Shown: positions 2,874 to 26,766 of the stretch, one piece after another | How the letters are laid out: the number at the start of each line of letters is the position of its first letter | How positions within the stretch are numbered: position 1 is the first letter of the stretch | IMG/VR virus record: IMGVR_UViG_3300045988_049951 | Length of the DNA: 64,000 nucleotides | Strand: one strand, 5' to 3' | Source of the DNA: a virus | Position numbers and translations under genes: made by a program | Notes under the pieces: model-generated | Told to the model about the DNA's origin: nothing | The model's database searches: none | Seen by the model: the letters and a program-made list of their open reading frames with translations, nothing else

Positions 2874-2924
2874 ATTAAATTAAACAAAAAATACCCCAAC
2901 AACTTTCGCTGCTGGGGTACATAG

Positions 2925-2996
2925 TAACGCCAACGGGATTCGAACCCGTATGGCAGGCGTGAAAAGCCTAAATCCTAACCATTAGATGATGGCGCT
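2925..2996 (-). tRNA. tRNA-Glu (anticodon TTC)
   Basis: Manual fold: acceptor AGCGCCA/TGGCGTT, D-stem ATCT/GGAT, anticodon loop TTTTCAC, T-arm GGGTTCGAATCCCGT. Confidence 0.7.
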
Positions 2997-2999
2997 ATC

Positions 3000-3674
3000 C
3001 TACTGCACAATCAAGCTATAAGCTTCTTGCAACAGTTTAATAGTTGGAACCATACGGTTATCAACAACTATTATTTTATAAATGTTCAGAATTTCTTTGT
3101 AGGTTAAAGATGTACAAGTTAGAAATATCTGCACATCTTCGTTTACAGAACCATTTGACAATCCCAAATCTACTTTAATCATACTGGGTAATGTTCCAAT
3201 CTGAGAAATATCCCAAGTAGATTTAGTTCTCCTGAAAACTTCCCGCTGTTTGGAAGTAAGTTGCTTTTCTTTCAATCTAGACTCAATAATAGTACCATCA
3301 AACGTTAACGAACCTCCATCGGTATTACTATTATTTAATGCTAGCTGAATCTTCTGAACTGCAGAGTCTTTAGGTTTTGGCTTAAGTTGCACTCCTTCCT
3401 TCAAGCCCTTAATAACCTGCAATGAAGGAATAAAGTCTTTTATTTGAGTTGCATTCCATACAAGAAATTTTCCAGGACTATCCTTAACAGTAACTATATA
3501 CTTAGTCCCTCCGTTCAATGGGATAATTACTTGTAAGTCTGCATCACTCATTTTACTTAAATGGTCTGATACTCTAACTTTGACGTTTCCAATGACAAAG
3601 TAGCGAGAAACAGTGGTTTCAGCTTCGATAATCTCGGAAGCTGTTGCTAATAAATACTTTTCTAATCTAGTCAT
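3000..3674 (-). CDS. hypothetical protein (224 aa)
   Basis: ORF track; ends with TAG immediately 5' of tRNA-Glu. Confidence 0.45.
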   Translation of the reverse strand: MTRLEKYLLATASEIIEAETTVSRYFVIGNVKVRVSDHLSKMSDADLQVIIPLNGGTKYIVTVKDSPGKFLVWNATQIKDFIPSLQVIKGLKEGVQLKPKPKDSAVQKIQLALNNSNTDGGSLTFDGTIIESRLKEKQLTSKQREVFRRTKSTWDISQIGTLPSMIKVDLGLSNGSVNEDVQIFLTCTSLTYKEILNIYKIIVVDNRMVPTIKLLQEAYSLIVQ

Positions 3675-3702
3675 AAATAATTAATCTATTAAATTACCAA
3701 AG

Positions 3703-3775
3703 ATCCCCCACTCGGATTCGAACCGAGGTCTCGAGATTACAAATCACGTGTTCTAACCAACTAAACTACAGGGGA
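3703..3775 (-). tRNA. tRNA-Thr (anticodon TGT), one T-T mismatch in the anticodon stem
   Basis: Manual fold: acceptor TCCCCTG/TGGGGGA, D-loop AGTTGGTTA, anticodon loop TTTGTAA, T-arm CTCGGTTCGAATCCGAG. Confidence 0.55.
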
Positions 3776-3780
3776 ATAAA

Positions 3781-3819
3781 TGCCGAGACTGGGGGATTCG
3801 AACCCCAACCTTCACAGTG
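3781..3819 (-). other. tRNA 3'-fragment (T-arm GGGGGTTCGAATCCCCC plus acceptor 3' strand AGTCTCGGCA), partial duplicate of the adjacent tRNA 3' end
   Basis: Canonical T-loop and acceptor 3' half but no 5' acceptor, D-arm or anticodon arm; begins only about 11 nt after the upstream tRNA's 3' end, which shares TCTCGGCA. Confidence 0.5.
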
Positions 3820-3891
3820 CCGAGAGTACCAGACTCGAACTGGCGACCTTCGCATAGACAGTGCACTATTCTACCACTGAACTAACCCTCG
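3820..3891 (-). tRNA. tRNA-Asp (anticodon GTC, unusual T at position 37)
   Basis: Manual fold: acceptor CGAGGGT/ACTCTCG, anticodon loop CTGTCTA, T-arm GCCAGTTCGAGTCTGGT. Confidence 0.5.
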
Positions 3892-3902
3892 GTGTAACTG
3901 GA

Positions 3903-4454
3903 TTACTCCAGACTAATTAAACCCTTCTCTAACATAATATGGTGATTCGGACATAACCATACTAAATTATTCTCGTTGTTAATCTCCTTAATAAGAGTGT
4001 CTTCGTCAAATTCTAATATTCCTTTAAGATGATGTACTTCAAGTATTGCATCAAATTCATGATTATGACAATATTGACATACTTTCTCACGTTCGGAACT
4101 TTCTAATACTCTACGAGCATTAGTCCTTATTTCTTGACATTTAGATGATAAGTACTTCTGCCCAGATGTATAATAACCCAATGTTTTGTTACCAATTCCA
4201 TTAAGTTCTTCCCAGCAACTACGACACATTTCTGAATCTTTATGCTTAGGTTTACCACATCTAGGACATATCTTGTTTTCATCGTGCTTTATCCTACCTC
4301 TATTATTGTAAGAAGCAGCACACGAATGACTACAAAACTGTTTCTTCCTCACATCTGCGACCCTCTGATTATCTAGTACTTCGATTACCTTACCACATTC
4401 CTTACAGTGGTTAGGATTCTCATAATACAATTTAAGAGATTGTTCTCGATTCAC
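3903..4454 (-). CDS. HNH endonuclease with zinc-ribbon motifs
   Basis: Several CxxC pairs and a C-terminal HNH-like motif HHLKGI...NLVWLCPNHHIMLEKG. Confidence 0.55.
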   Translation of the reverse strand: MNREQSLKLYYENPNHCKECGKVIEVLDNQRVADVRKKQFCSHSCAASYNNRGRIKHDENKICPRCGKPKHKDSEMCRSCWEELNGIGNKTLGYYTSGQKYLSSKCQEIRTNARRVLESSEREKVCQYCHNHEFDAILEVHHLKGILEFDEDTLIKEINNENNLVWLCPNHHIMLEKGLISLE

Positions 4455-4591
4455 AGATAAGTTTAATTAATTTTAATGACAGTGTGATATGCAAGCCATT
4501 ACACCACAGCCTCGAAAATGCAGGTATTTATCTCGTTACACCTGCGAGTCCGGCAATCCTTTCTTATATACCGCGTGAGCTGGCGGTTTTG

Positions 4592-4665
4592 TAGGGCTAA
4601 TCAGACTTGAACTGATAACCTCCACATTATCAGTGTGGTGCTCTAACCAGTTGAGCTATAGCCCT
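4592..4665 (-). tRNA. tRNA-Ile (anticodon GAT)
   Basis: Manual fold: acceptor AGGGCTA/TAGCCCT, anticodon stem-loop CCACA-CTGATAA-TGTGG, T-arm ATCAGTTCAAGTCTGAT. Confidence 0.75.
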
Positions 4666-4671
4666 ATTATG

Positions 4672-4696
4672 TGGACCTAACGGGAGTCGAACCCGT
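4672..4696 (-). other. orphan tRNA 3'-fragment (T-arm ACGGGTTCGACTCCCGT plus acceptor 3' strand TAGGTCCA)
   Basis: No matching 5' acceptor (GGACCTA) within about 400 nt; the 3' acceptor strand is identical to that of the tRNA(CAT) at 12600..12674. Confidence 0.4.
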
Positions 4697-5242
4697 GTCC
4701 AAACAACCCTCGTTACAAGGATAACGTGCGTCTCATTTTTATTACATCAGCTAGGGAGTTCTAGCATTTAGGTAGTTTTATAAGTCTTACAAGAGTCCAT
4801 ACTAAGTATTTCTCTAGATGCTTATCTACAAGCTACCAAACTATAGGGCTGACCGAAGTCAACGTTCCACCACTCCATTTACGTTGGAGAACGGGATGAT
4901 ACTTTAGAGATTCGTCACATCTCATGGAACACATCTTCCATCTGTTTTATGACGTAGGAGATTCAGTCTTACTAACTCTTAGAGTGTTCTGATTAAGAGT
5001 ATATTACTAGGATTAGAGCCTAGCTCTCCATTATGTCAATATACTCAACCTCTTCTGTTTCTAGGTCTCTCCCGTAACCCGACTTAGTTAATAGTGTCTA
5101 CCAACAAGCCAGCAGCTTAGGCTGCCATTCTTACTTCGCTATAAGTAGCATTTATTGTTTTTTCTTCGTTTAAAGAGATTGCGCTCTACACGTCCTTATA
5201 ATTCGTAATCGCCTGTCAAATCCAAGTAGGCCCATGTTCCCG

Positions 5243-5818
5243 TCAATTAGACGGGAGTTTACATTGTTTAATTATTTCCTTAGTAATTACGTTATTAGCT
5301 TCTCTAGATAACTTATTCAGTTTCTCTAGGTCAAACTCGCTAGATTGAAACTTGAATTGAATCCAAGTTGGCTCGCTTGGTCTATAATCTAACCAAGATT
5401 CACAGTCATCGGTTCCAAGAACTTCTCGTACCATAGCTAAAATACGTTCACCAGCAGCTTTAGTTTTTACGAATCCAGATAAATCATATCCAACCCCTCT
5501 AGAATGCCAATATTCCCCTTCTTCTGGTCTAACATCCTTAGGTTCCCAATGCCAAGGAGGAATACCTTTTCTAGGATGGTCTATTTTTATAGCTTCTTCC
5601 TTTACCCATTCAGAGTTTGGGTCAGATGGATTTTCTGGATAAGCTCCATATAAGCACTTAGCAGTAGGGTTATTGCTCCTGACTTCAAAATGTATACCAC
5701 AATGTTTACAAGTACCAGAAGTTAAACCTCCTCCAGATACGCAACTACCTTTAATGGCATCACAACCACAGTTGGGACAACCCCATTTTAGGTATTCGTC
5801 ATAAAGTATTGATAACAT
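5243..5818 (-). CDS. zinc-ribbon protein (191 aa), function unknown
   Basis: N-terminal GCPNCGCDAIKGSC...TCKHCG cysteine cluster; ORF track. Confidence 0.45.
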   Translation of the reverse strand: MLSILYDEYLKWGCPNCGCDAIKGSCVSGGGLTSGTCKHCGIHFEVRSNNPTAKCLYGAYPENPSDPNSEWVKEEAIKIDHPRKGIPPWHWEPKDVRPEEGEYWHSRGVGYDLSGFVKTKAAGERILAMVREVLGTDDCESWLDYRPSEPTWIQFKFQSSEFDLEKLNKLSREANNVITKEIIKQCKLPSN

Positions 5819-6114
5819 TATTTATTGAGTTTAAATTCCACTTCTTTTAGAACAACATACATTTTACCATCCTCTTTCTGTTCAACACAATTATTAGCTT
5901 GTAAAAAATTAATTATGAAGTCCATAGGAATGTGGTAATTGTCAGTTACAAGCATACTGCCATCAATATGATAGCGTTCTTTTCTCTCTAATCTAGTGGG
6001 ATTACCATTTATAGTAATCTCACCAGAACATTCATTATCCTTATCTGGTTTAATTCCCTTTATGTAAATAGAATAACCAGCTTCAGCTAAATAAACTTGT
6101 TGTATTACACTCAT
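5818..6114 (-). CDS. hypothetical protein (98 aa)
   Basis: ORF track; coupled with neighbours by overlapping stop/start. Confidence 0.4.
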   Translation of the reverse strand: MSVIQQVYLAEAGYSIYIKGIKPDKDNECSGEITINGNPTRLERKERYHIDGSMLVTDNYHIPMDFIINFLQANNCVEQKEDGKMYVVLKEVEFKLNK

Positions 6115-6536
6115 AGTTTTGGAACATCAGAACGATTATCATGATAACCTTCGTCCCCAACAAGTTGAGCCAGACAACCATGCATATAAGGAACAAGCTC
6201 AGGTTTCTCCTTATAACACCTGTATAGCATCCAACTCATACTCATGGAATTTCCACTATGTCCTTTGTCGTAGTACGGAAGTTTGTCTTTGATAGCCTCA
6301 ATCAGCTCAAATAAGCTAGGATATTTCTCATAGAAGGCTTTACATTCCTCCAGACTCATTTCTTTGAAAAACTCAGAAAATGATAGAGCTTGCTTTATAC
6401 AAGCCATTTCATAATCGAATAGGTCATTTTCTTCAAATGTACCATTACCAGCTTCAATGAATAAACGATTGAAACGTTCAATTCTCTCCTGAAATTCTTT
6501 CGGAAGAGATTCCTTCGTAAGATTCTTGAAATCCAT
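6111..6536 (-). CDS. hypothetical protein (141 aa)
   Basis: ORF track. Confidence 0.4.
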   Translation of the reverse strand: MDFKNLTKESLPKEFQERIERFNRLFIEAGNGTFEENDLFDYEMACIKQALSFSEFFKEMSLEECKAFYEKYPSLFELIEAIKDKLPYYDKGHSGNSMSMSWMLYRCYKEKPELVPYMHGCLAQLVGDEGYHDNRSDVPKL

Positions 6537-6567
6537 AATCTAATTTTAATTGTTAAAAATAACTTAG

Positions 6568-6640
6568 TAGCGGGAGTCGGATTCGAACCGACGACCTTCA
6601 GGTTATGAGCCTGACTAGCTACCTCTGCTATCATCCCGCG
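6568..6640 (-). tRNA. tRNA with anticodon CAT (Met, fMet or Ile2), copy 1
   Basis: Anticodon stem-loop TCAGG-CTCATAA-CCTGA, D-stem TAGC/GCTA, T-arm GTCGGTTCGAATCCGAC. Confidence 0.65.
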
Positions 6641-6643
6641 ATA

Positions 6644-6829
6644 TTACAAATGCTTTTTAATTAGTTTACAATGATTATACTCTCCTCCCCATCTAATAGG
6701 AAACTCTTTTTCCTTAGCCTCTTTATACTTCTCTGCCTGTTTCTTGTCTAAAAAGATTTGGCAATCAGTTTCATAATTTTGAGGAGCATTAGCTGGGTGA
6801 TAATTTACTACAACTACATATACTTTCAT
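6644..6829 (-). CDS. hypothetical small protein (61 aa)
   Basis: ORF track. Confidence 0.35.
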   Translation of the reverse strand: MKVYVVVVNYHPANAPQNYETDCQIFLDKKQAEKYKEAKEKEFPIRWGGEYNHCKLIKKHL

Positions 6830-6848
6830 AATTTTTTAAATAAAGTTT

Positions 6849-6921
6849 GTGGACACGCAGGGACTCGAACCCTATCTTCCGGTGTGCAAAACCAGCGCTC
6901 TAGCCATTTGAGCTAACGGCC
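6849..6921 (-). tRNA. tRNA-Ala-like (anticodon TGC) with a poorly paired acceptor stem; possibly a pseudo-tRNA
   Basis: Good D-arm, anticodon arm (CTGGT-TTTGCAC-ACCGG) and T-arm (TAGGGTTCGAGTCCCTG), but 5' GGGCCGT does not pair with 3' CGTGTCC. Confidence 0.35.
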
Positions 6922-7269
6922 CATTTTTGGGATTTTCTTTTTAATTGGTGACATACCCATAAATTTCCACTGTTAAGATTCCACAACTTAACAACACCAG
7001 ATAAGTTTTTTTGTTTGAATCATGTTCTAGTAGCATAAGTCCGCAACCATGCTACTCTCTCAGTTCATCGACTATCGTGTCAGAAAAGGTCTCTATGATT
7101 CCGCAGGGACTGGCTTTAACTTAAACCCCGAATGGATTTTTACCTTGCCAGGTCAGGATATTATTACGTTTCTAGCACTCTGAATTGATTTAGCCTGTTT
7201 AATCTTATAATCACGAACTACTTCTTTCATATAAGAGTTAAATTCCTTCATGTCTTTCCATGAAATCTC

Positions 7270-7428
7270 ATTAGCTAGTTTTGGAGTTTGAAACATTTTG
7301 TACTTTTCTAATAGGTCTTTCATTTCTCTCTTTAGTTTTCAAAGCATTTTCACACGCTTGTTTCTTCATTACATATGGACAATCACAATTTCCACTGTAG
7401 TACCAACAACAATAATCACACTGATGCA
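7270..7428 (-). CDS. hypothetical Cys-rich small protein (52 aa; MHQCDYCCWYYSGNCDCPY...)
   Basis: Manual translation of a minus-strand ORF below the 60-aa track cutoff; low confidence. Confidence 0.25.
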
Positions 7429-7450
7429 TAATCTAATATAAGGTCAATAG

Positions 7451-7522
7451 CTGGGGCACATGGACTCGAACCATGATTCTTTGATTAACAGTCAAAAGTT
7501 CTGACCTTTGAACTATACCCCA
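7451..7522 (-). tRNA. tRNA-Asn (anticodon GTT)
   Basis: Anticodon stem-loop TTTGA-CTGTTAA-TCAAA; T-arm CATGGTTCGAGTCCATG; acceptor TGGGGTA/TGCCCCA. Confidence 0.65.
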
Positions 7523-7767
7523 ATAGTTAATTTTCTCCACGGGTGTAGATAAGTACCCCTTTGGTACTTACCTTTTAGTAGTATCTTTACTCTAGACCTC
7601 TATAAGGAGGCGGAATAGTTCCAGAAACTAACCATGTATAGCTCTTAGAACTCTGTTCAAAATACCACTTAGCAGCTTTCTTCACAACATTAATTACTTT
7701 CTTCATAACATCAAAGTTTAAAATTGTTAATAATTAATCTAATTCAGAGCCACAAAAGGAGTTTAGT

Positions 7768-7844
7768 TGCGGAGGTAGGATTCGAACCGTTTATGACGAT
7801 TTCTAGGTTATGAGCCTAGCGAGATGACCACTTCTCTACTCCAC
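7768..7844 (-). tRNA. tRNA-like with anticodon CAT (copy 2) and a non-canonical T-arm region
   Basis: Perfect anticodon arm CTAGG-CTCATAA-CCTAG and D-arm GAGA/TCTC, but the sequences flanking TTCGAAT do not form a 5-bp T-stem. Confidence 0.35.
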
Positions 7845-8121
7845 GATATTGGTAACTACTTTACATCCGCTACCCAGGGATGCCTCTATCACCAGTGAGG
7901 CACGGACTATTCTAACCGTATAGCACGACTGGTTGGTAACGTCTCCAGACACGGCATTTAGACTGAAAATGTCGAAACAGTGATTTAAAGATTAAATAGG
8001 CTCTGGAAGATATTTTCAAATATAGCCATACTATGATTTGGTTTTATTCTTACAGCATCCTATAATATGACTCTATGCAGATTTATTGTCAGTAATTCCG
8101 TTATTAATTTGTTGCATCTTT

Positions 8122-8229
8122 CTAAAAGTCATAACAATGTTCCTTCCAGCGCTCTTCTATAGAAGTAGTAGTTTTTCCTACGTATCGCTTGCTATTAATT
8201 AAATTTGTAATGCAATAAATATATGCCAT
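8122..8229 (-). pseudogene. GIY-YIG homing-endonuclease N-terminal remnant (about 35 codons)
   Basis: MAYIYCITNLINSKRYVGKTTTSIEERWKEH is the GIY-YIG motif, followed by stop codons with no downstream continuation in any frame. Confidence 0.4.
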
Positions 8230-8249
8230 ATTTTTAAATTTAAAATTAG

Positions 8250-8333
8250 AATCCGTGGAGGGATTCGAACCCTCATTAAAGATTTCTCTTTTCAGTTTTG
8301 CAGACTGATGGCTAAACCATTCACCCACACGGA
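8250..8333 (-). tRNA. 84-nt type-II-like tRNA (long variable arm, 3-bp D-stem) with anticodon GCA (Cys) and discriminator T
   Basis: Acceptor ATCCGTG/CACGGAT, anticodon stem-loop TCAGT-CTGCAAA-ACTGA, variable arm AAAGAGAAATCTTTAAT, T-arm GAGGGTTCGAATCCCTC. Confidence 0.5.
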
Positions 8334-8335
8334 TA

Positions 8336-17187: not shown

Positions 17188-17667
17188 TCAGCCAAATATA
17201 CAAATCATTGAAGATATAAAGAATACAGCTCCTCCTACTACACTTGTCCAACCTCCAGCATCTTCGTCATTCTTAGATAGCTTTCCTCTACCAGTTAGTA
17301 GCATAAACAAGGATATTCCTAATAATATGATACCTATTACAACACCTGCTATCTCTTTGTAAAGTAATTTCCATACTACGATAGTTATTGCTGTTTGTCC
17401 CAAATTAGAGTCTGCTATTCTGATGGCGGAATCTTCAACTGCTTTAAGAGTTTCATTAACAGCCACGCCTATTTCCTTACCAAGGTTAGCATACTCAGAA
17501 ACTTCCTTGATTTCACCCTTTATAGCTTTCTCTGTTGTTATCTTCTCAATTTGAGTTCTAGTATCACTAGGCAACTTATCATAGTCTTCTTGTGATATAG
17601 TTATCTGAGAAAAAGCTGCTACGCTCATCCAGAGCATAGCAAGCATAATTACAAGGAACTTTTTCAT
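17188..17667 (-). CDS. secreted / membrane protein (signal peptide plus two C-terminal TM helices)
   Basis: MKKFLVIMLAMLWMSVAAFSQ signal peptide; C-terminal hydrophobic segments; start overlaps the stop of the upstream gene (TAATG). Confidence 0.45.
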   Translation of the reverse strand: MKKFLVIMLAMLWMSVAAFSQITISQEDYDKLPSDTRTQIEKITTEKAIKGEIKEVSEYANLGKEIGVAVNETLKAVEDSAIRIADSNLGQTAITIVVWKLLYKEIAGVVIGIILLGISLFMLLTGRGKLSKNDEDAGGWTSVVGGAVFFISSMICIFG

Positions 17668-18227
17668 TAGTCAAGCCATTCAAATTCTTCACCCTTGAAA
17701 TGTCTTGCAAAACAAGCATCGAACACTAGCTTTCCAAACTGGGTTGATACGTATTTGGCAATCTCTTCAGATTTGCACGCAAGCATCCCGACAAAGGAAT
17801 TGGCATAGCCGACGTCAAAGTAAGAATTGAAAGAGCCGAGACCCGCATAGCCGCCATAATGCGCGCTGCCGCCCACCAACGCGAATTTCTCGCCCTGATA
17901 ACGGAAGTGACCAATGACTTCTGCATCCTTCGGAACTGATTTCATTCTAAAGAAGCGAACCCAGGGATACCATATAGTACCAGTTAACAGATTGAACTTG
18001 TGACCTTCATTTAGCGCATCCAAGACTGTCTGCAACTTAGCTAGAGAATTTACAGATCTATTGTAGTAAATAGTATCTCTAGTAACACACCCTAGATAGT
18101 TTACAGCATCCTCATAGGTTCTTATCCGTCCCATAATGTTTTCTGGAACGATTTCAACATTGCCAGTTTCGGCATTATAGATGGGTTTATAACCATCTGG
18201 ACATTCAATTTCAATTGTCTTTTTCAT
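17667..18227 (-). CDS. second (remote) DGR target protein: small C-type-lectin/FGE-like protein carrying variable repeat VR2
   Basis: Residues about 116-147 (LVGGSAHYGGYAGLGSFNSYFDVGYANSFVG) are encoded by a GC-rich 90-nt segment homologous to the DGR template repeat; every difference from the template lies at a template adenine. Confidence 0.6.
   Translation of the reverse strand: MKKTIEIECPDGYKPIYNAETGNVEIVPENIMGRIRTYEDAVNYLGCVTRDTIYYNRSVNSLAKLQTVLDALNEGHKFNLLTGTIWYPWVRFFRMKSVPKDAEVIGHFRYQGEKFALVGGSAHYGGYAGLGSFNSYFDVGYANSFVGMLACKSEEIAKYVSTQFGKLVFDACFARHFKGEEFEWLD
17788..17878 (-). repeat. DGR variable repeat 2 (VR2), inside CDS 17667..18227
   Basis: About 90-nt alignment to the TR (43822..43919) with some 18 mismatches, all at TR adenines (A to G/T/C). 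Confidence 0.7.
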
Positions 18228-18256
18228 TCGTTATAATATTTAATAAAACATGATTA

Positions 18257-18331
18257 GGGTGTTATAGCGGACTCGAACCGCTGACCTCTACAGCCACAAT
18301 GTAGCGTTCTGCCAACTGAACTAATAACACC
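18257..18331 (-). tRNA. tRNA-His (anticodon GTG)
   Basis: Acceptor GGTGTTA/TAACACC, anticodon stem-loop CTACA-TTGTGGC-TGTAG, T-arm GCGGTTCGAGTCCGC. Confidence 0.7.
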
Positions 18332-18337
18332 ATCAAA

Positions 18338-18802
18338 TTATTCGAATAGCGGCAGCAACTTCTTTCCTAGTATCTTCACCGCTTTCTGTACATCAGCTAC
18401 AGTTCTAAAATAAACAACACCTGGATATTTTACGTTTTGATGCATGACGACGTACACTCCTTTTATATCAGTTTCCGTCTTTCCAGATAGAGAAGAACCT
18501 TTTCCAAGAAAATAGCCAGTATTACCTTCTGTTTTGATCCATCCTTTATTTAGATAGTTAGCAACTATTTGTAAACTAGCTAGAGAACTGAGTTGTTCTG
18601 TCATGCTTGGAGGACATACTAATGTATTCCAAAAACCATAATCTTCTTCAGACTCTACTATCTCTTTAAAGGAAGGAATTAGCATTTCCTCACTAAATGC
18701 AGTAAGAGCTAATTTCTTCAAGTCTTCATTACCGCTTTCATACCATTCGCGTGCCTGCTCTAAAGTTACCTCAAGATAGGCTTTTGTCTTAATTCTATTC
18801 AT
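18338..18802 (-). CDS. hypothetical protein (154 aa)
   Basis: ORF track. Confidence 0.4.
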   Translation of the reverse strand: MNRIKTKAYLEVTLEQAREWYESGNEDLKKLALTAFSEEMLIPSFKEIVESEEDYGFWNTLVCPPSMTEQLSSLASLQIVANYLNKGWIKTEGNTGYFLGKGSSLSGKTETDIKGVYVVMHQNVKYPGVVYFRTVADVQKAVKILGKKLLPLFE

Positions 18803-19050
18803 TTTTGTTTATTAGTTTTTAATGGACACCAATCCGGAATTAATACCCTTTCGTAAGGTCTTAACATTCCTTCAATTAGTTTATTCTCAGACTCCTTACA
18901 GAGCGCTTTCTCGTCGTCATCATTGAACCAGTCATTAGGATCTGGGTCAGGAACAATTAAGCAGTGCGGACATTCTCTACACTGCTTAATTTCTTTTTGA
19001 AATACTACACTAGTACCAGATTTCTGGTAAGTATCCTTCTCCGTACTCAT
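18799..19050 (-). CDS. hypothetical Cys-containing protein (83 aa)
   Basis: ORF track; CRECPHC...WCP cysteines. Confidence 0.4.
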   Translation of the reverse strand: MSTEKDTYQKSGTSVVFQKEIKQCRECPHCLIVPDPDPNDWFNDDDEKALCKESENKLIEGMLRPYERVLIPDWCPLKTNKQK

Positions 19051-19056
19051 AATTTG

Positions 19057-19272
19057 TCATTTTGTAATTTCTTTAAATTCGTTTATAACTGTTTTTATAA
19101 ATGGTTTAATATCAAATAATAGTATTACAATAACAAATATAGTATTTATTACTGGTAATGCCATTATTGCGAGTCTTCCAACTGTAACAGATCGTTCATT
19201 TACTGCCATATAAAGGCTAACTATGTACGTGCTTATTACGTATATAAATGCTGAATATACAAATATCATCAT
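19057..19272 (-). CDS. small membrane protein (two TM helices)
   Basis: ORF track; strongly hydrophobic sequence. Confidence 0.4.
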   Translation of the reverse strand: MMIFVYSAFIYVISTYIVSLYMAVNERSVTVGRLAIMALPVINTIFVIVILLFDIKPFIKTVINEFKEITK

Positions 19273-19290
19273 AATATATTGAAATTAGTG

Positions 19291-19374
19291 TGGGATTGGG
19301 AGGACTCGAACCTCCAGTCTCAAAAGAGAGCAGATTTACAGTCTGCGCGGCTACCAATTACCGGTTACAATCCC
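19291..19374 (-). tRNA. tRNA-Tyr (anticodon GTA), type II, copy 1
   Basis: Anticodon stem-loop GCAGA-CTGTAAA-TCTGC, long variable arm, acceptor GGGATTG/CAATCCC. Confidence 0.7.
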
Positions 19375-19587
19375 GAATCGACCTAGTAGAGAACCCTGGT
19401 TTCCTCATTTAAATATGACTAACCTATATGCAGTGGGTATACATATTTCTAAAATTCATATCCTAGGTCTCGCTAATAGAGTTTTATTCATAGACAGATT
19501 TATAATAATCTATCCAATAGTCTGCTTCCATATCTTCGAAGATTTCTTTAAGTTCTTCATCAGATAATCCTTCGTATTTGTCTTCCA

Positions 19588-19959
19588 TTATATCTTTCTC
19601 CTATTAAATAGTCTAAAATATTCGTCAGAATATACGCTGCATAAGTCCTTATACTTTTTTGGCATAGGATAATCAAAGTCATCAAATGCAGACTCTTTAA
19701 TAAATCCATCATGTAGAGCCATATTTGCTGTGGTAACAGCAATATTACAATTACGCTCCTTTCCCCAGTCAACAATGTTACTCATAACACTATTAAAGTA
19801 TTCTGTATCATTATCTACTTGGAGATAGATTTCCACTCTGCAAATTGCAGGATTTTTGAATCCTTGTCTACCTTGTCTAAGAGTTATTTTAGATACGAAA
19901 TTCAAGTCTAGCAAATCTGCTATTCTATCCTTAGCTACAATTCTAGAAATTCTTATCAT
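19588..19959 (-). CDS. hypothetical protein (123 aa)
   Basis: ORF track; the overlapping ORF 19560..19775 is judged spurious. Confidence 0.4.
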   Translation of the reverse strand: MIRISRIVAKDRIADLLDLNFVSKITLRQGRQGFKNPAICRVEIYLQVDNDTEYFNSVMSNIVDWGKERNCNIAVTTANMALHDGFIKESAFDDFDYPMPKKYKDLCSVYSDEYFRLFNRRKI

Positions 19960-19986
19960 CTTTTGGTAAGTTATTTTACATAATTG

Positions 19987-20070
19987 TGGGATAGGTAGGA
20001 TTCGAACCTACTAAGCCTAAAGGCAACGGATTTACAGTCCGTCCCAACTCTCCATCGTTGGCGCTATCCC
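19987..20070 (-). tRNA. tRNA-Tyr (anticodon GTA), type II, copy 2 (sequence distinct from copy 1)
   Basis: Anticodon stem-loop ACGGA-CTGTAAA-TCCGT, variable-arm stem GCCT/AGGC, T-arm GTAGGTTCGAATCCTAC. Confidence 0.7.
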
Positions 20071-20279
20071 ATAAAGCAATTAACAGATTTGTTCTAATTA
20101 ACATAGCTACTACAATTCTTCCTCTTGGCACCCCAAGTCCTCTAGTAGCTAATAGCCGCACTAGTGCGTGGTAACAATTTTAAGGGAACTCACCTCTGTT
20201 AATTGGAGTAATCAGGGATTCATCTACGTAGGCACCCAATAGACATTATCTATTCTACTAGTGAATGGTGATTACTTCG

Positions 20280-20352
20280 TCTGGATAGTGTGGCTCGAAC
20301 ACACGACCTCTGCATCCCAAATGCAGCGTTCTACCTACTGAACTATATCCAG
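20280..20352 (-). tRNA. tRNA-Pro (anticodon TGG)
   Basis: Acceptor CTGGATA/TATCCAG, anticodon stem-loop CTGCA-TTTGGGA-TGCAG, T-arm GTGTGTTCGAGCCACAC. Confidence 0.7.
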
Positions 20353-20420
20353 GTGTAAGTATGTGTTTCACAACAAATACTCACTGCGTAAGAAAAAGAA
20401 AAATTCAAGAAAATTGCCTG

Positions 20421-20494
20421 TGACTCCGCTGGGATTCGAACCCAGGACCCCCAAATTAAAAGTTTGGTGCTCTAACCAACTGAGCTACGGAGTC
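20421..20494 (-). tRNA. tRNA-Lys (anticodon TTT)
   Basis: Acceptor GACTCCG/CGGAGTC, anticodon stem-loop CCAAA-CTTTTAA-TTTGG, T-arm CTGGGTTCGAATCCCAG. Confidence 0.75.
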
Positions 20495-20509
20495 ATTTTA
20501 ATGATAAAG

Positions 20510-20583
20510 TATCCCGTGAAGGATTCGAACCTTCGACCCACAGCTTAGAAGGCTGTTGCTCTATCCAACTGAGCTAACGGGAC
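20510..20583 (-). tRNA. tRNA-Arg (anticodon TCT)
   Basis: Anticodon stem-loop ACAGC-CTTCTAA-GCTGT, T-arm GAAGGTTCGAATCCTTC. Confidence 0.7.
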
Positions 20584-20635: not shown

Positions 20636-21595
20636 TTAAATCTTCTCTTCGGAAATAAGCGCATTACCGCACGTTATTCTGTCAGCATCTTCTTCTTTAG
20701 AAGGAACAAATACGATAACATCCCAACCTTCTTCAAGTAAAGGCTGTTCGAATTGACGATAAACATTATAATCAGAGTAGCCAGTTACTTCAAAACCATT
20801 CTCAACTGCGGATGCAGTTTCATGAATAGGGGTTATTTTCACAATAAACTTCTCTTTATCGAAAAGTCTAGATAACTCCTTTGCATCCAGAATAGTCTGT
20901 GCAGTAACTGGGAAATTCAACGTATACTTTCTACCTTTCGGCATAGGTAAACGACTAGCCATTTCAGAAATAGTAGCTAATGAATGACTTTTGTTGTCAA
21001 ATAGCTCTCTTCTCTGTTCATCATCAGTAGAATTTATTGAGAATTGAAGACCTGCCTCACCTCCGTAGAAATCATTCTTGATTCCACACCAAGTTTGTAT
21101 GAAGTTCTCTAGTTTTCTATTAGCTCTAGGAAGCATAGTAGAAACTACTGGATGGACAGTCTTAGCTATCAATCCACAACTCTTTACTACTTCTTTTAGA
21201 ACAATCCCAAATGCTAGTACATTATCATTCCAAGTTGGCTCTCCCATTCTTGCGAAATGCACATTGAATCTGTCAGTATTCCTAACAGTCTCATTCTTGA
21301 TAATGTTTCTTATTTGCCATTCCATCTCTTCAATAGAAACGTTTCCATAGAATCCAAATTTCGGAACATCACAGAACTTGCATGTCATCGGACAACCTTT
21401 CTGGGTAGAAATGGTTGCAACCCACTTCTTACTAAGGTCAACTTCAGTATTAGCTACTCCGTTGATCTCCTTAGTTAATCCTAGGAAATTAGCTTTGATA
21501 TTGTTCTCCTTTCCATAGTCTCCTACGGTTAGAAATTCAAGTTTATGTTCTGTATCAACATAAATCTTTCCTGTGTGAGTAAGTATTGTCTTCAT
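20636..21595 (-). CDS. radical-SAM methyltransferase of the RlmN/Cfr family (319 aa)
   Basis: STQKGCPMTCKFCDV (compare RlmN SSQVGCALECKFCST), SAM-binding ARMGEP (RlmN MGMGEPL), C-terminal ITCGNAL (RlmN AACGQLA, second catalytic Cys). Confidence 0.6.
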   Translation of the reverse strand: MKTILTHTGKIYVDTEHKLEFLTVGDYGKENNIKANFLGLTKEINGVANTEVDLSKKWVATISTQKGCPMTCKFCDVPKFGFYGNVSIEEMEWQIRNIIKNETVRNTDRFNVHFARMGEPTWNDNVLAFGIVLKEVVKSCGLIAKTVHPVVSTMLPRANRKLENFIQTWCGIKNDFYGGEAGLQFSINSTDDEQRRELFDNKSHSLATISEMASRLPMPKGRKYTLNFPVTAQTILDAKELSRLFDKEKFIVKITPIHETASAVENGFEVTGYSDYNVYRQFEQPLLEEGWDVIVFVPSKEEDADRITCGNALISEEKI

Positions 21596-23620: not shown

Positions 23621-24004
23621 GATAAATATTTTTATTAATTATTACTAGAACTATTAGTTTTAGCTTGAATAGCTTACTTATCTCCTAAACCACGTAAAGG
23701 TTGTTCTTATCTTAGGAGTAGGAGACCTAAGTCTCCAATGCATACAATTGTTTCTCAACAACCTACGCCGTCATATATAATGAAAAGAGATGGATTATCC
23801 TGTGCCTACAATCATTTAAGATTGTCTTCGATTGTTGGTGCAATCTCACAATACTTTGCCTTATCTCTCGATAAGACACCTCTCCAGTATCAAGGTCATA
23901 CTGTTTGATATAAGAGATGCTCTGCATTAGTCTCTGGGCGTACCCATTATAATCCTAGAAAACGTAACAAAAGCTACAAGTAGTTGTAGTCATTGAATAC
24001 CAAG

Positions 24005-24074
24005 TTCCCTACTCTGGACTTGAACCAGAATCTTCTCCTTTAGAGGGAGATATACTGACTTGTACTAGTAGGGA
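24005..24074 (-). tRNA. suppressor tRNA with anticodon CTA (reads UAG); amino-acid identity unknown; 70 nt, short D-loop
   Basis: Acceptor TCCCTAC/GTAGGGA, U8, D-stem GTAC/GTAT, perfect anticodon stem TCTCC/GGAGA with loop CTCTAAA, T-arm TCTGGTTCAAGTCCAGA. Confidence 0.65.
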
Positions 24075-26453: not shown

Positions 26454-26525
26454 TGCCCTATGGTGTAATGGTCAGCACAGATGACTCTAAATCATTTAGT
26501 CTGGGTTCGAATCCTAGTAGGGCAA
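26454..26525 (+). tRNA. suppressor tRNA-Gln-like with anticodon CTA (reads UAG)
   Basis: TGCCCTA TG GTGT AATGGTCAGCAC A GATGA-CTCTAAA-TCATT TAGTC CTGGGTTCGAATCCTAG TAGGGCA A; the body closely resembles the genome's tRNA-Gln(TTG) (same TGGTGTAATGGT D-arm). Confidence 0.8.
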
Positions 26526-26766
26526 CGCCAAAATTAATAGTTATGATAAATTTAAATGAGAATTATGCTGTAACTCCAACAGGAGCTAAGACCCTTATTA
26601 TTGAAGAGGGAGATGATTGGAATAAAGTTTGCGATAAGGTAGTTGGATGTAGATTTGATTACATATTTGTACCTCAAGAATTTGAGAATCAAGCCTGCTA
26701 CTTTCTTCCACAAATAAGTATTCAAGGAAAGCAGATAGGTAAGATATGTACTTATAAAGTAGTGAA

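Follow-up and report, generated by a model that had tools for sequence, protein, structure and literature searches.

A phage radical-SAM protein with an RlmN-type fold and a single RlmN-type catalytic cysteine, possibly acting on a small metabolite

The window analysed here, a stretch of 64,000 nucleotides from the IMG/VR virus record IMGVR_UViG_3300045988_049951, encodes on its minus strand a radical S-adenosylmethionine (SAM) protein that, as judged from its sequence, has the class A fold of the methyltransferases RlmN and Cfr and belongs to a separate family, without the N-terminal domain of RlmN and without its resolving cysteine. A sequence-only reading of this DNA had described the protein as a phage member of the RlmN/Cfr family that could modify tRNAs or ribosomes. 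The explanation that we prefer for the evidence as a whole, tentatively and without holding it to be probable, is that this RlmN-type radical enzyme has a small metabolite as its substrate, possibly an NAD-related one, and not rRNA or tRNA. In the ORF (open reading frame) listing of the window, the gene is a single ATG-initiated ORF without internal stop codons:

20636..21595, minus strand: complete radical-SAM ORF of 319 residues, RlmN/Cfr (class A) fold, PHROG 24834 family (ORF listing, profile and fold model)

A 187-kb IMG/VR viral contig carries a 100% identical copy of the 319-residue protein, which supports the phage origin that had been proposed for the gene (exact gene copies were indexed in 200 blocks of the assembly collection, and contigs were read up to 189 kb).

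Profile searches place the protein near RlmN, at scores far below those of genuine members. Only the start of the generic Radical_SAM domain of Pfam is matched, below threshold. The best NCBIfam match is the RlmN model TIGR00048 (E = 5.5e-10; 38.7 bits for a cutoff of 290); the RlmN model NF008396 gives 25.6 bits for a cutoff of 633, the Cfr models TIGR04432 and NF000424 give 27.5-29.8 bits for cutoffs of 530-550, and no other NCBIfam subfamily is better than E = 0.005. The match to PHROG 24834, a family of unknown function, has E = 7.9e-104 and covers residues 2-316 of the protein and positions 5-324 of the 336 in the profile. The best sequence matches in PDB are again RlmN, over residues 59-148 only. 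An AlphaFold2 model computed from 34 diverse relatives has a mean predicted local distance difference test score (pLDDT) of 93 and a predicted template modelling score of 0.92; its ten best Foldseek matches in PDB are all RlmN (E ~1e-10; 4e-5 for the next family), and some of the entries matched by fold are complexes of C118A RlmN crosslinked to RNA. In profile-profile comparison between the family and seven bona fide RlmN/Cfr sequences, the probability is 99.8% (E = 6e-29), and the hhalign alignment is colinear from RlmN residue ~91-93 to the C-terminus, with ~20 query residues before that point. Nothing in the protein corresponds to the N-terminal domain of RlmN (~90 residues), which contacts RNA; the model has only short beta-strands there. 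In the predicted structure, the closest neighbours of the protein are RlmN and Cfr, clearly above other radical-SAM families.

The three motifs from which the RlmN/Cfr assignment had been drawn are all present in the ORF, and they are not chance resemblances, as indicated by the PHROG match (E 8e-104), the 7085 database matches of the family and the mean pLDDT of the model. The alignment locates them, together with two further features, as follows:

21371..21394, minus strand: CxxxCxxC [4Fe-4S]/SAM cluster motif, C68-P-M-T-C72-K-F-C75, corresponding to C125, C129 and C132 of RlmN
21236..21250, minus strand: R116-M-G-E-P120, GxGEP-type SAM-binding motif
20669..20671, minus strand: Cys309 (C-terminal ITCGNAL loop), homologue of Cys355, the methyl carrier in RlmN (AACGQL)
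21413..21415, minus strand: Thr61, at the position of the resolving cysteine C118 of RlmN
21425..21520, minus strand: clade-specific insertion of ~30 residues (residues ~26-57, GDYGKENNIKANFLG...), after the N-terminal beta-strands and ahead of the cluster loop

Residue counts were made on 34 diverse family members and seven RlmN/Cfr references. Within the cluster motif (GCPMTCKFC, residues 67-75), C68 and C75 are invariant in the family and C72 is a cysteine in 33 of 34 members. The MGEP sequence (residues 117-120, nucleotides 21236-21247) aligns through G118-E-P120 with G179-E-P of RlmN, and the preceding Arg116, family-specific and nearly invariant, stands where RlmN has Gly177. In the ITCGNAL loop (residues 307-313), C309-G310 aligns with C355-G356 of RlmN, and the position of Cys309 is occupied by a cysteine in 31/34 members. 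The position of C118, seven residues before the cluster, is a cysteine in all seven references and never in the family, where isoleucine (15 sequences), threonine (8), asparagine (5), alanine (3) and others are found. The sequence-only reading had asked whether both mechanistic cysteines are conserved: the equivalent of C355 is, that of C118 is not. It had also named an assignment to a different radical-SAM subfamily, with loss of the C-terminal cysteine, as the outcome that would speak against it; RlmN is the best match and the cysteine is kept. RlmN uses C355 as its methyl carrier and C118 to resolve the covalent intermediate formed with RNA, so that C118 mutants remain crosslinked to RNA. 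Since the family keeps the equivalent of C355 and never that of C118, the canonical RlmN cycle cannot run unchanged.

Other RlmN invariants are kept in the merged alignment (RlmN/window protein): E105/E20, S120/S63, Q122/Q65, Q151/Q94, the GEP triplet, N184/N123, T212/T153, S233/S186, R242/R195, G338, C355/C309 and G356/G310. The family has lost, besides C118 and the N-terminal domain, the ND286-287 motif (deleted) and R344. The clade-specific insertion is common to fusion proteins with an energy-coupling factor (ECF) transporter component described below, in which it occurs in three of four clusters; neither RlmN nor the cellular operon clade has it.

True membership in RlmN/Cfr is ruled out by scores ~7- to 20-fold under the cutoffs, by the lost C118, by the missing N-terminal domain and by a neighbour-joining tree in which the references split from the family in 100/100 bootstraps, at 18-20% identity. 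The earlier placement in the RlmN/Cfr family thus stands for the nearest fold, profile and branch, and fails for membership in either. Automatic annotation by the Joint Genome Institute (JGI) labels close homologues '23S rRNA (adenine2503-C2)-methyltransferase', and RlmN is the best named profile match; the membership test contradicts this label. We give next to no credence to a true orthologue that methylates A2503 of 23S rRNA and could confer antibiotic resistance, and nothing supports the protection against antibiotics that had been suggested for the phage.

The family is large. Its clusters at 50% identity that reach E 1e-3 number only 766 among 1.84 billion representatives, a count that also speaks against membership in RlmN or Cfr, and hundreds of viral contigs carry members. 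The tree (neighbour-joining, 100 bootstraps) and the alignment distinguish four groups. The cellular clade (a) is 30-36% identical to the window protein and has the C-terminal motif SNCGQ. The clade of the window protein (b; 99/100 bootstraps) includes Bacteroides phage Versailles (51-52% identity), many gut viral contigs, the transporter-fusion proteins and ~70% identical copies on contigs binned into genome assemblies of Alphaproteobacteria, Bacilli and Clostridia. Group (c) consists of phage proteins with both cysteines, from Vibrio phage 166E36-1, Salmonella phage Arash and Stenotrophomonas phage BUCTxx99. Group (d) consists of phage proteins of 262-291 residues, from Pectobacterium phage Wc4, Vibrio phage D479, Kehishuvirus and Moorella phage MTATph1, with glycine at the C118 position and without the whole C-terminal cysteine loop; having neither cysteine, they cannot use either of those of RlmN. 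The genes of the last two groups are:

L002 4881-5840; L101 6896-7822; L102 5878-6807: group (c) genes
L003 4938-5813; L103 5839-6684; L100 6842-7630; L104 5833-6657: group (d) genes

The contexts of groups (c) and (d) are not transferable to the window protein. We therefore dropped BUCTxx99 (gene in a tRNA array), 166E36-1 (next to NAMPT) and Kehishuvirus (next to an SPFH gene) as supporting contexts, since their proteins fall into the other subfamilies, in which both cysteines are present or both are missing.

The genomic contexts of groups (a) and (b) carry the argument on the substrate. The cellular clade was sampled in Elusimicrobia, Myxococcota, Aminicenantes, Thermotogae, Asgard and DPANN archaea and others. 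At 34 loci the enzyme has an isochorismatase-family amidohydrolase as its neighbour or fusion partner, and at 36 the gene directly upstream encodes a thioredoxin-reductase-like flavoprotein; fusion proteins with the amidohydrolase and with the flavoprotein both exist. The three genes form a conserved cassette (L053 6414-8855, L057 6450-8939, L068 6403-8867 and ~30 further loci) that recurs across widely different bacteria and archaea, among them on a Heimdallarchaeum chromosome.

Within the clade of the window protein, four bacterial representative clusters have the enzyme fused behind a QueT-like ECF S-component, and are 38-42% identical to the window protein over the full length. An MTA/SAH (methylthioadenosine/S-adenosylhomocysteine) nucleosidase domain follows the enzyme in P0131 and P0134 (223.9 bits for a cutoff of 169 in the latter); P0160 has the start of this domain before its sequence breaks off, and P0132 ends after the radical-SAM domain. 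The complete fusions are located at:

L086 8001-10445: fusion of S-component, radical-SAM enzyme and MTA/SAH nucleosidase (P0134; the two fusions have 814-820 residues)
L087 3423-5885: fusion of the same three domains (P0131)

The neighbours of P0134 (ffh, ftsY, rnc, plsX, recG) correspond to an ordinary bacterial chromosome, and those of P0131 are ordinary cellular genes too. A search of PDB sequences with the fused membrane domain gave no meaningful match.

NAD-salvage genes adjoin the enzyme in four lineages of the same clade. In a set of four related loci the order is NAPRTase, a nicotinamidase-like isochorismatase, the radical-SAM enzyme, NadE and DUF5662, with gaps of 6-16 nt (NAPRTase 441 bits for a cutoff of 297; NadE 199 bits for 64). 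At L039 the order is NAPRTase..X-NadE, X being the enzyme; on the viral contig L189 the order is PRTase, NadE, a 98-residue protein and the enzyme; and on the phage-like contig L109 it is NAPRTase, the enzyme, PTH2, NUDIX, NAD kinase, Prs and Rnl1. We estimate informally that direct adjacency to NAD genes in four lineages is well above chance, even given accessory-gene islands. In an 83% identical phage copy, the next gene is an overlapping one for an FMN_red flavoprotein. The DUF5662 gene of the related loci (L007 6359-6856) overlaps the end of nadE, and Moorella phage MTATph1 has a 38% identical DUF5662 (L104 3222-3641) at ~2 kb from its radical-SAM homologue; DUF5662 itself has no match in PDB or NCBIfam.

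The transporter fusion, the amidohydrolase partners and the membership in salvage operons are hard to reconcile with an RNA enzyme, and it is on these grounds that we propose, with modest confidence, a small metabolite as substrate. That this would be a pyridine or adenine compound feeding nicotinate-branch NAD+ synthesis is speculative. A broader formulation, which we regard as doubtful, is that RlmN-type chemistry, otherwise known only on the adenines of RNA, was repurposed for a free metabolite in a large family from which gut phages carry an auxiliary gene that stands alone. Some bacteria would import the metabolite through an ECF transporter, and others would process it with an amidohydrolase and a dedicated flavoprotein reductase, into nicotinate-branch NAD+ synthesis. 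The conservation of the cluster, the SAM motifs and the cysteine loop, together with the dedicated flavoproteins of relatives, leads us to infer that the product is catalytically active. The enzyme would cleave SAM reductively, with electrons from a flavoprotein (probably that of the host in the window phage, a dedicated one in relatives), and Cys309 would lie next to the substrate as methyl carrier or hydrogen-atom donor. Without C118, a methyl adduct on Cys309 could be resolved reductively or in trans, unless Cys309 served as the hydrogen-atom donor. The substrate would be small and probably anionic, rather than 23S rRNA or tRNA. SAH and 5'-deoxyadenosine are inhibitory, and the nucleosidase fusion could fit the clearing of these two by-products; alternatively, it might process an adenosylated product, as in MqnE/MqnB and HpnH/HpnG. 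The fused nucleosidase shows weaker similarity to nucleosidases of the MqnB/HpnG type. In the window phage, the gene may be an auxiliary metabolic or counter-defence gene, expressed from a standard-code early region with the tRNA array.

Several observations weigh against this proposal. The only characterised relatives act on RNA; the conserved basic residues K57, R116, K173, R222 and K253 would suit RNA too; and in several phages the gene has tRNAs and RNA-repair genes in its vicinity. The assignment of the S-component is borderline (QueT 37-40 bits for a cutoff of 33.7) and concerns only four fusion clusters, with no preQ1 or other riboswitch upstream of them. No NAD-salvage gene was detected by tblastn in the 64-kb window. 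In a reverse test on 74 viral loci seeded only by a gene of the NAMPT/NAPRT family, a family member occurred within 6 kb at a single locus, an already-known contig, although the family HMM (hidden Markov model) recovered all positive controls at E 1e-41 or better; phage NAD modules therefore do not depend on the enzyme as a fixed component. When the neighbours within 5 kb at 37 diverse loci were clustered against each other, no family was present at more than three of these loci, and most loci of the clade of the window protein have no recurrent neighbour. The NAD link is present in several lineages but appears facultative.

The chief competing explanation starts from the tRNA genes of the window. 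ARAGORN finds 26 of them, 24 in an array:

2924-20583, minus strand: array of 24 tRNA genes with small ORFs interspersed (ARAGORN)
24004-24074, minus strand: tRNA with CUA anticodon (ARAGORN, called 'Pyl')
26454-26526, plus strand: tRNA with CUA anticodon (ARAGORN, called 'Pyl')
12168-12584, minus strand: ORF of 138 residues inside the array, Pfam tRNA_lig_CPD (cyclic phosphodiesterase of tRNA ligase; precomputed match on identical contigs)

The array that had been reported next to the gene is confirmed, with a count lower than the ~27 given. It had been placed upstream of the gene, which holds in plus-strand coordinates; since both are on the minus strand, the radical-SAM gene precedes the array transcriptionally, its stop codon lying 52 nt upstream of tRNA-Arg(TCT) (20509-20583). 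Between the two is a short hairpin without a T-run. Some tRNAs of the array are unusually long for their type: Cys, 86 nt (8249-8334); Met, 80 nt (7766-7845); and Phe, 78 nt (13675-13752). The 138-residue ORF, which has no NCBIfam match, suggests a function in RNA repair.

On this explanation, plausible if rather unlikely, the protein would be an RNA C-methyltransferase of new specificity, a 'mini-RlmN' that modifies phage or host tRNA (e.g. at A37) or rRNA and has another means than C118 to resolve its crosslink. Its role would be to adjust how the phage tRNA set decodes, amber suppressors included, or to guard tRNAs against anticodon nucleases. In fold and profile the protein is closest to RlmN/Cfr and the methyl-carrier loop is kept; at the same time, the RNA-contacting N-terminal residues are missing, and C118, the mutation of which leaves RlmN stuck to its RNA, is absent throughout the clade. 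In the lineage, defined by at least 84% protein identity, every one of the 28 viral loci has a tRNA at a distance of 56-263 nt, whereas at loci with a 69-83% identical protein a tRNA occurs within 10 kb in only 7 of 52, the other 45 having none. This indicates that tRNA adjacency is the synteny of one phage group and not a property of the family, and it makes the tRNA modification that had been deduced from the array a weak inference. Among related loci of genome assemblies, 19/32 have a tRNA within 8 kb. RNA-repair neighbours (the tRNA-ligase cyclic phosphodiesterase domain in the window phage, Rnl1 and PTH2 in L109) and, in P0175, the junction of a family fragment with a Pnkp-like kinase/phosphatase would agree with an RNA substrate, as would the gene inside the tRNA array of BUCTxx99, except that the latter protein belongs to a different subfamily. 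The fusion of clade members to a membrane transporter component and their embedding in NAD-salvage clusters also argue against it. The isoelectric point and net charge proved uninformative as indicators of RNA binding, as the isoelectric point ranges from 4.9 to 9.1 in the family.

Modification of DNA or of the nucleotide pool, such as an adenine C-methylation in phage DNA or dNTPs that would evade restriction, appears improbable. It would account for the location of the gene in replication or recombination modules of smaller phages: between ParB and a Holliday-junction resolvase in Bacteroides phage Versailles, between an AAA_15 ATPase and RNase_T/SSB in L190, and near topoisomerase and ParB-HNH in L108. 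A distant homologue in the Moorella phage adjoins thymidylate synthase, but belongs to the subfamily without both cysteines and is not comparable. The window protein is acidic (isoelectric point 5.8) and has no DNA-binding domain, the transporter, amidohydrolase and NAD contexts would be left unexplained, and we know of no such C-methylated DNA base. A role as an analogue of the queuine lyase QueL, or as another enzyme of queuosine-precursor salvage, is very improbable. The QueT match of the fused S-component and the four GUN-anticodon tRNA types of the array recall queuosine, the trio of transporter, radical-SAM enzyme and nucleosidase parallels the QueK/QrtT/QueL cluster of C. difficile, and a replacement for a missing QueL has been proposed for streptococci; QueL itself was rejected by fold comparison with the solved structure (6P78) and by the lack of a preQ1 riboswitch before the transporter fusions.

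Two other genes of the tRNA region are kept in the phage lineage:

14162-16135, minus strand: SPFH/Band 7 domain (E 1e-19) in a protein of 657 residues, conserved in the whole lineage at ~6 kb from the radical-SAM gene
10217-11401, minus strand: AAA+ ATPase of 394 residues, PHROG 2376 (E 2e-52)

In Kehishuvirus 'tikkala' (L100) and in Stenotrophomonas phage BUCTxx99 (L002), the distant homologues of the radical-SAM gene have SPFH/prohibitin genes nearby as well. The plus strand of the window from 27000 to 64000 is amber-recoded, as is known from gut phages: when TAG is taken as a sense codon, it contains 12 ORFs of 303-2172 codons, 11 of which have 2-37 in-frame TAGs each, compared with only four ORFs of at least 200 codons in the standard code. 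The CUA-anticodon tRNAs sit between the standard-code and the recoded halves, and the radical-SAM gene and the tRNA array are both in the standard-code half.

A literature search found no paper on the PHROG 24834 radical-SAM family. To our knowledge, class A radical-SAM methyltransferases are represented only by RlmN and Cfr, both acting on RNA with a two-cysteine mechanism. The present family, on sequence evidence, is a class A family with altered catalytic equipment and non-ribosomal contexts. One cysteine is kept, the other is dropped with the N-terminal domain, and some members carry the fused domain of a vitamin-type transporter, an amidohydrolase or a flavoprotein reductase, which points either to a new way of completing the RlmN reaction or to a different reaction on a new class of substrate. 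If the broader formulation given above were true, no class A radical-SAM enzyme before this one would have had a substrate other than RNA; it would work without a resolving cysteine, and phages might use it as a further component when they reconstitute NAD+ against NAD-depleting immunity. Should the NAD link hold, the arms race over NAD+ at the metabolite level would gain an enzyme. The gene is a common, highly conserved accessory gene of abundant gut phages that pipelines mislabel as an rRNA methyltransferase. As its adjacency to tRNA arrays fails outside the group of the window phage, its function should not be read from the gene order of one lineage. The family is of interest for radical-SAM enzymology and for phage auxiliary metabolism, with the assignment of a function resting on context.

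Among known systems, the phage NAD+ reconstitution pathways NARP1, NARP2 and NARP3 resemble the contexts of some clade members, which likewise lie in NAD-salvage clusters (NAPRTase/NAMPT-family, NadE, NUDIX, NAD kinase, Prs); they differ in that the window has no detected NAD gene and that most phage NAMPT/NAPRT loci have no radical-SAM enzyme. None of these published pathways includes a radical-SAM enzyme: the word 'radical' is absent from the NARP3 paper (PMC13464706), and NARP1 and NARP2 are described as built from other enzymes. QueL (PDB 6P78), like the transporter-fused relatives, is a radical-SAM enzyme coupled to an ECF S-component and a nucleosidase, and acts on a salvaged base, whereas the window protein shows neither sequence nor fold similarity to it. 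Cfr, the C8-methyltransferase of 23S rRNA A2503 (TIGR04432, NF000424; PDB 9P0P), is more distant from the window protein than RlmN and has the resolving cysteine that the window protein lacks; there is no evidence of a link to resistance for the window protein. RlmN, the dual-specificity C2-methyltransferase of 23S rRNA A2503 and tRNA A37 (TIGR00048; PDB 3RFA, 5HR7, 6FZ6), is 19-20% identical to the window protein, which differs from it by the missing ~90-residue N-terminal domain, the C118 to Thr and G177 to Arg replacements, the deletion of ND286-287, the loss of R344, the extra 30-residue insertion before the cluster loop, its separate clade and its non-ribosomal contexts.

A further likeness is that to the 'mini-RlmN' proteins of group (c), which the HMM of the window family finds at E ~1e-41. 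They also lack the N-terminal domain, have 308-319 residues and come from large tRNA-rich phages. The gene of Vibrio phage 166E36-1 directly follows NAMPT, and that of BUCTxx99, inside its tRNA array, bears the record label 'prohibitin family protein'. These proteins are only 23-25% identical to the window protein, branch nearest to RlmN/Cfr in the neighbour-joining tree and, unlike it, keep an equivalent of C118 (VMCISTQ), together with GGGCGQLW. With both cysteines retained in their sequences, they are the better candidates for a real phage RNA methyltransferase.

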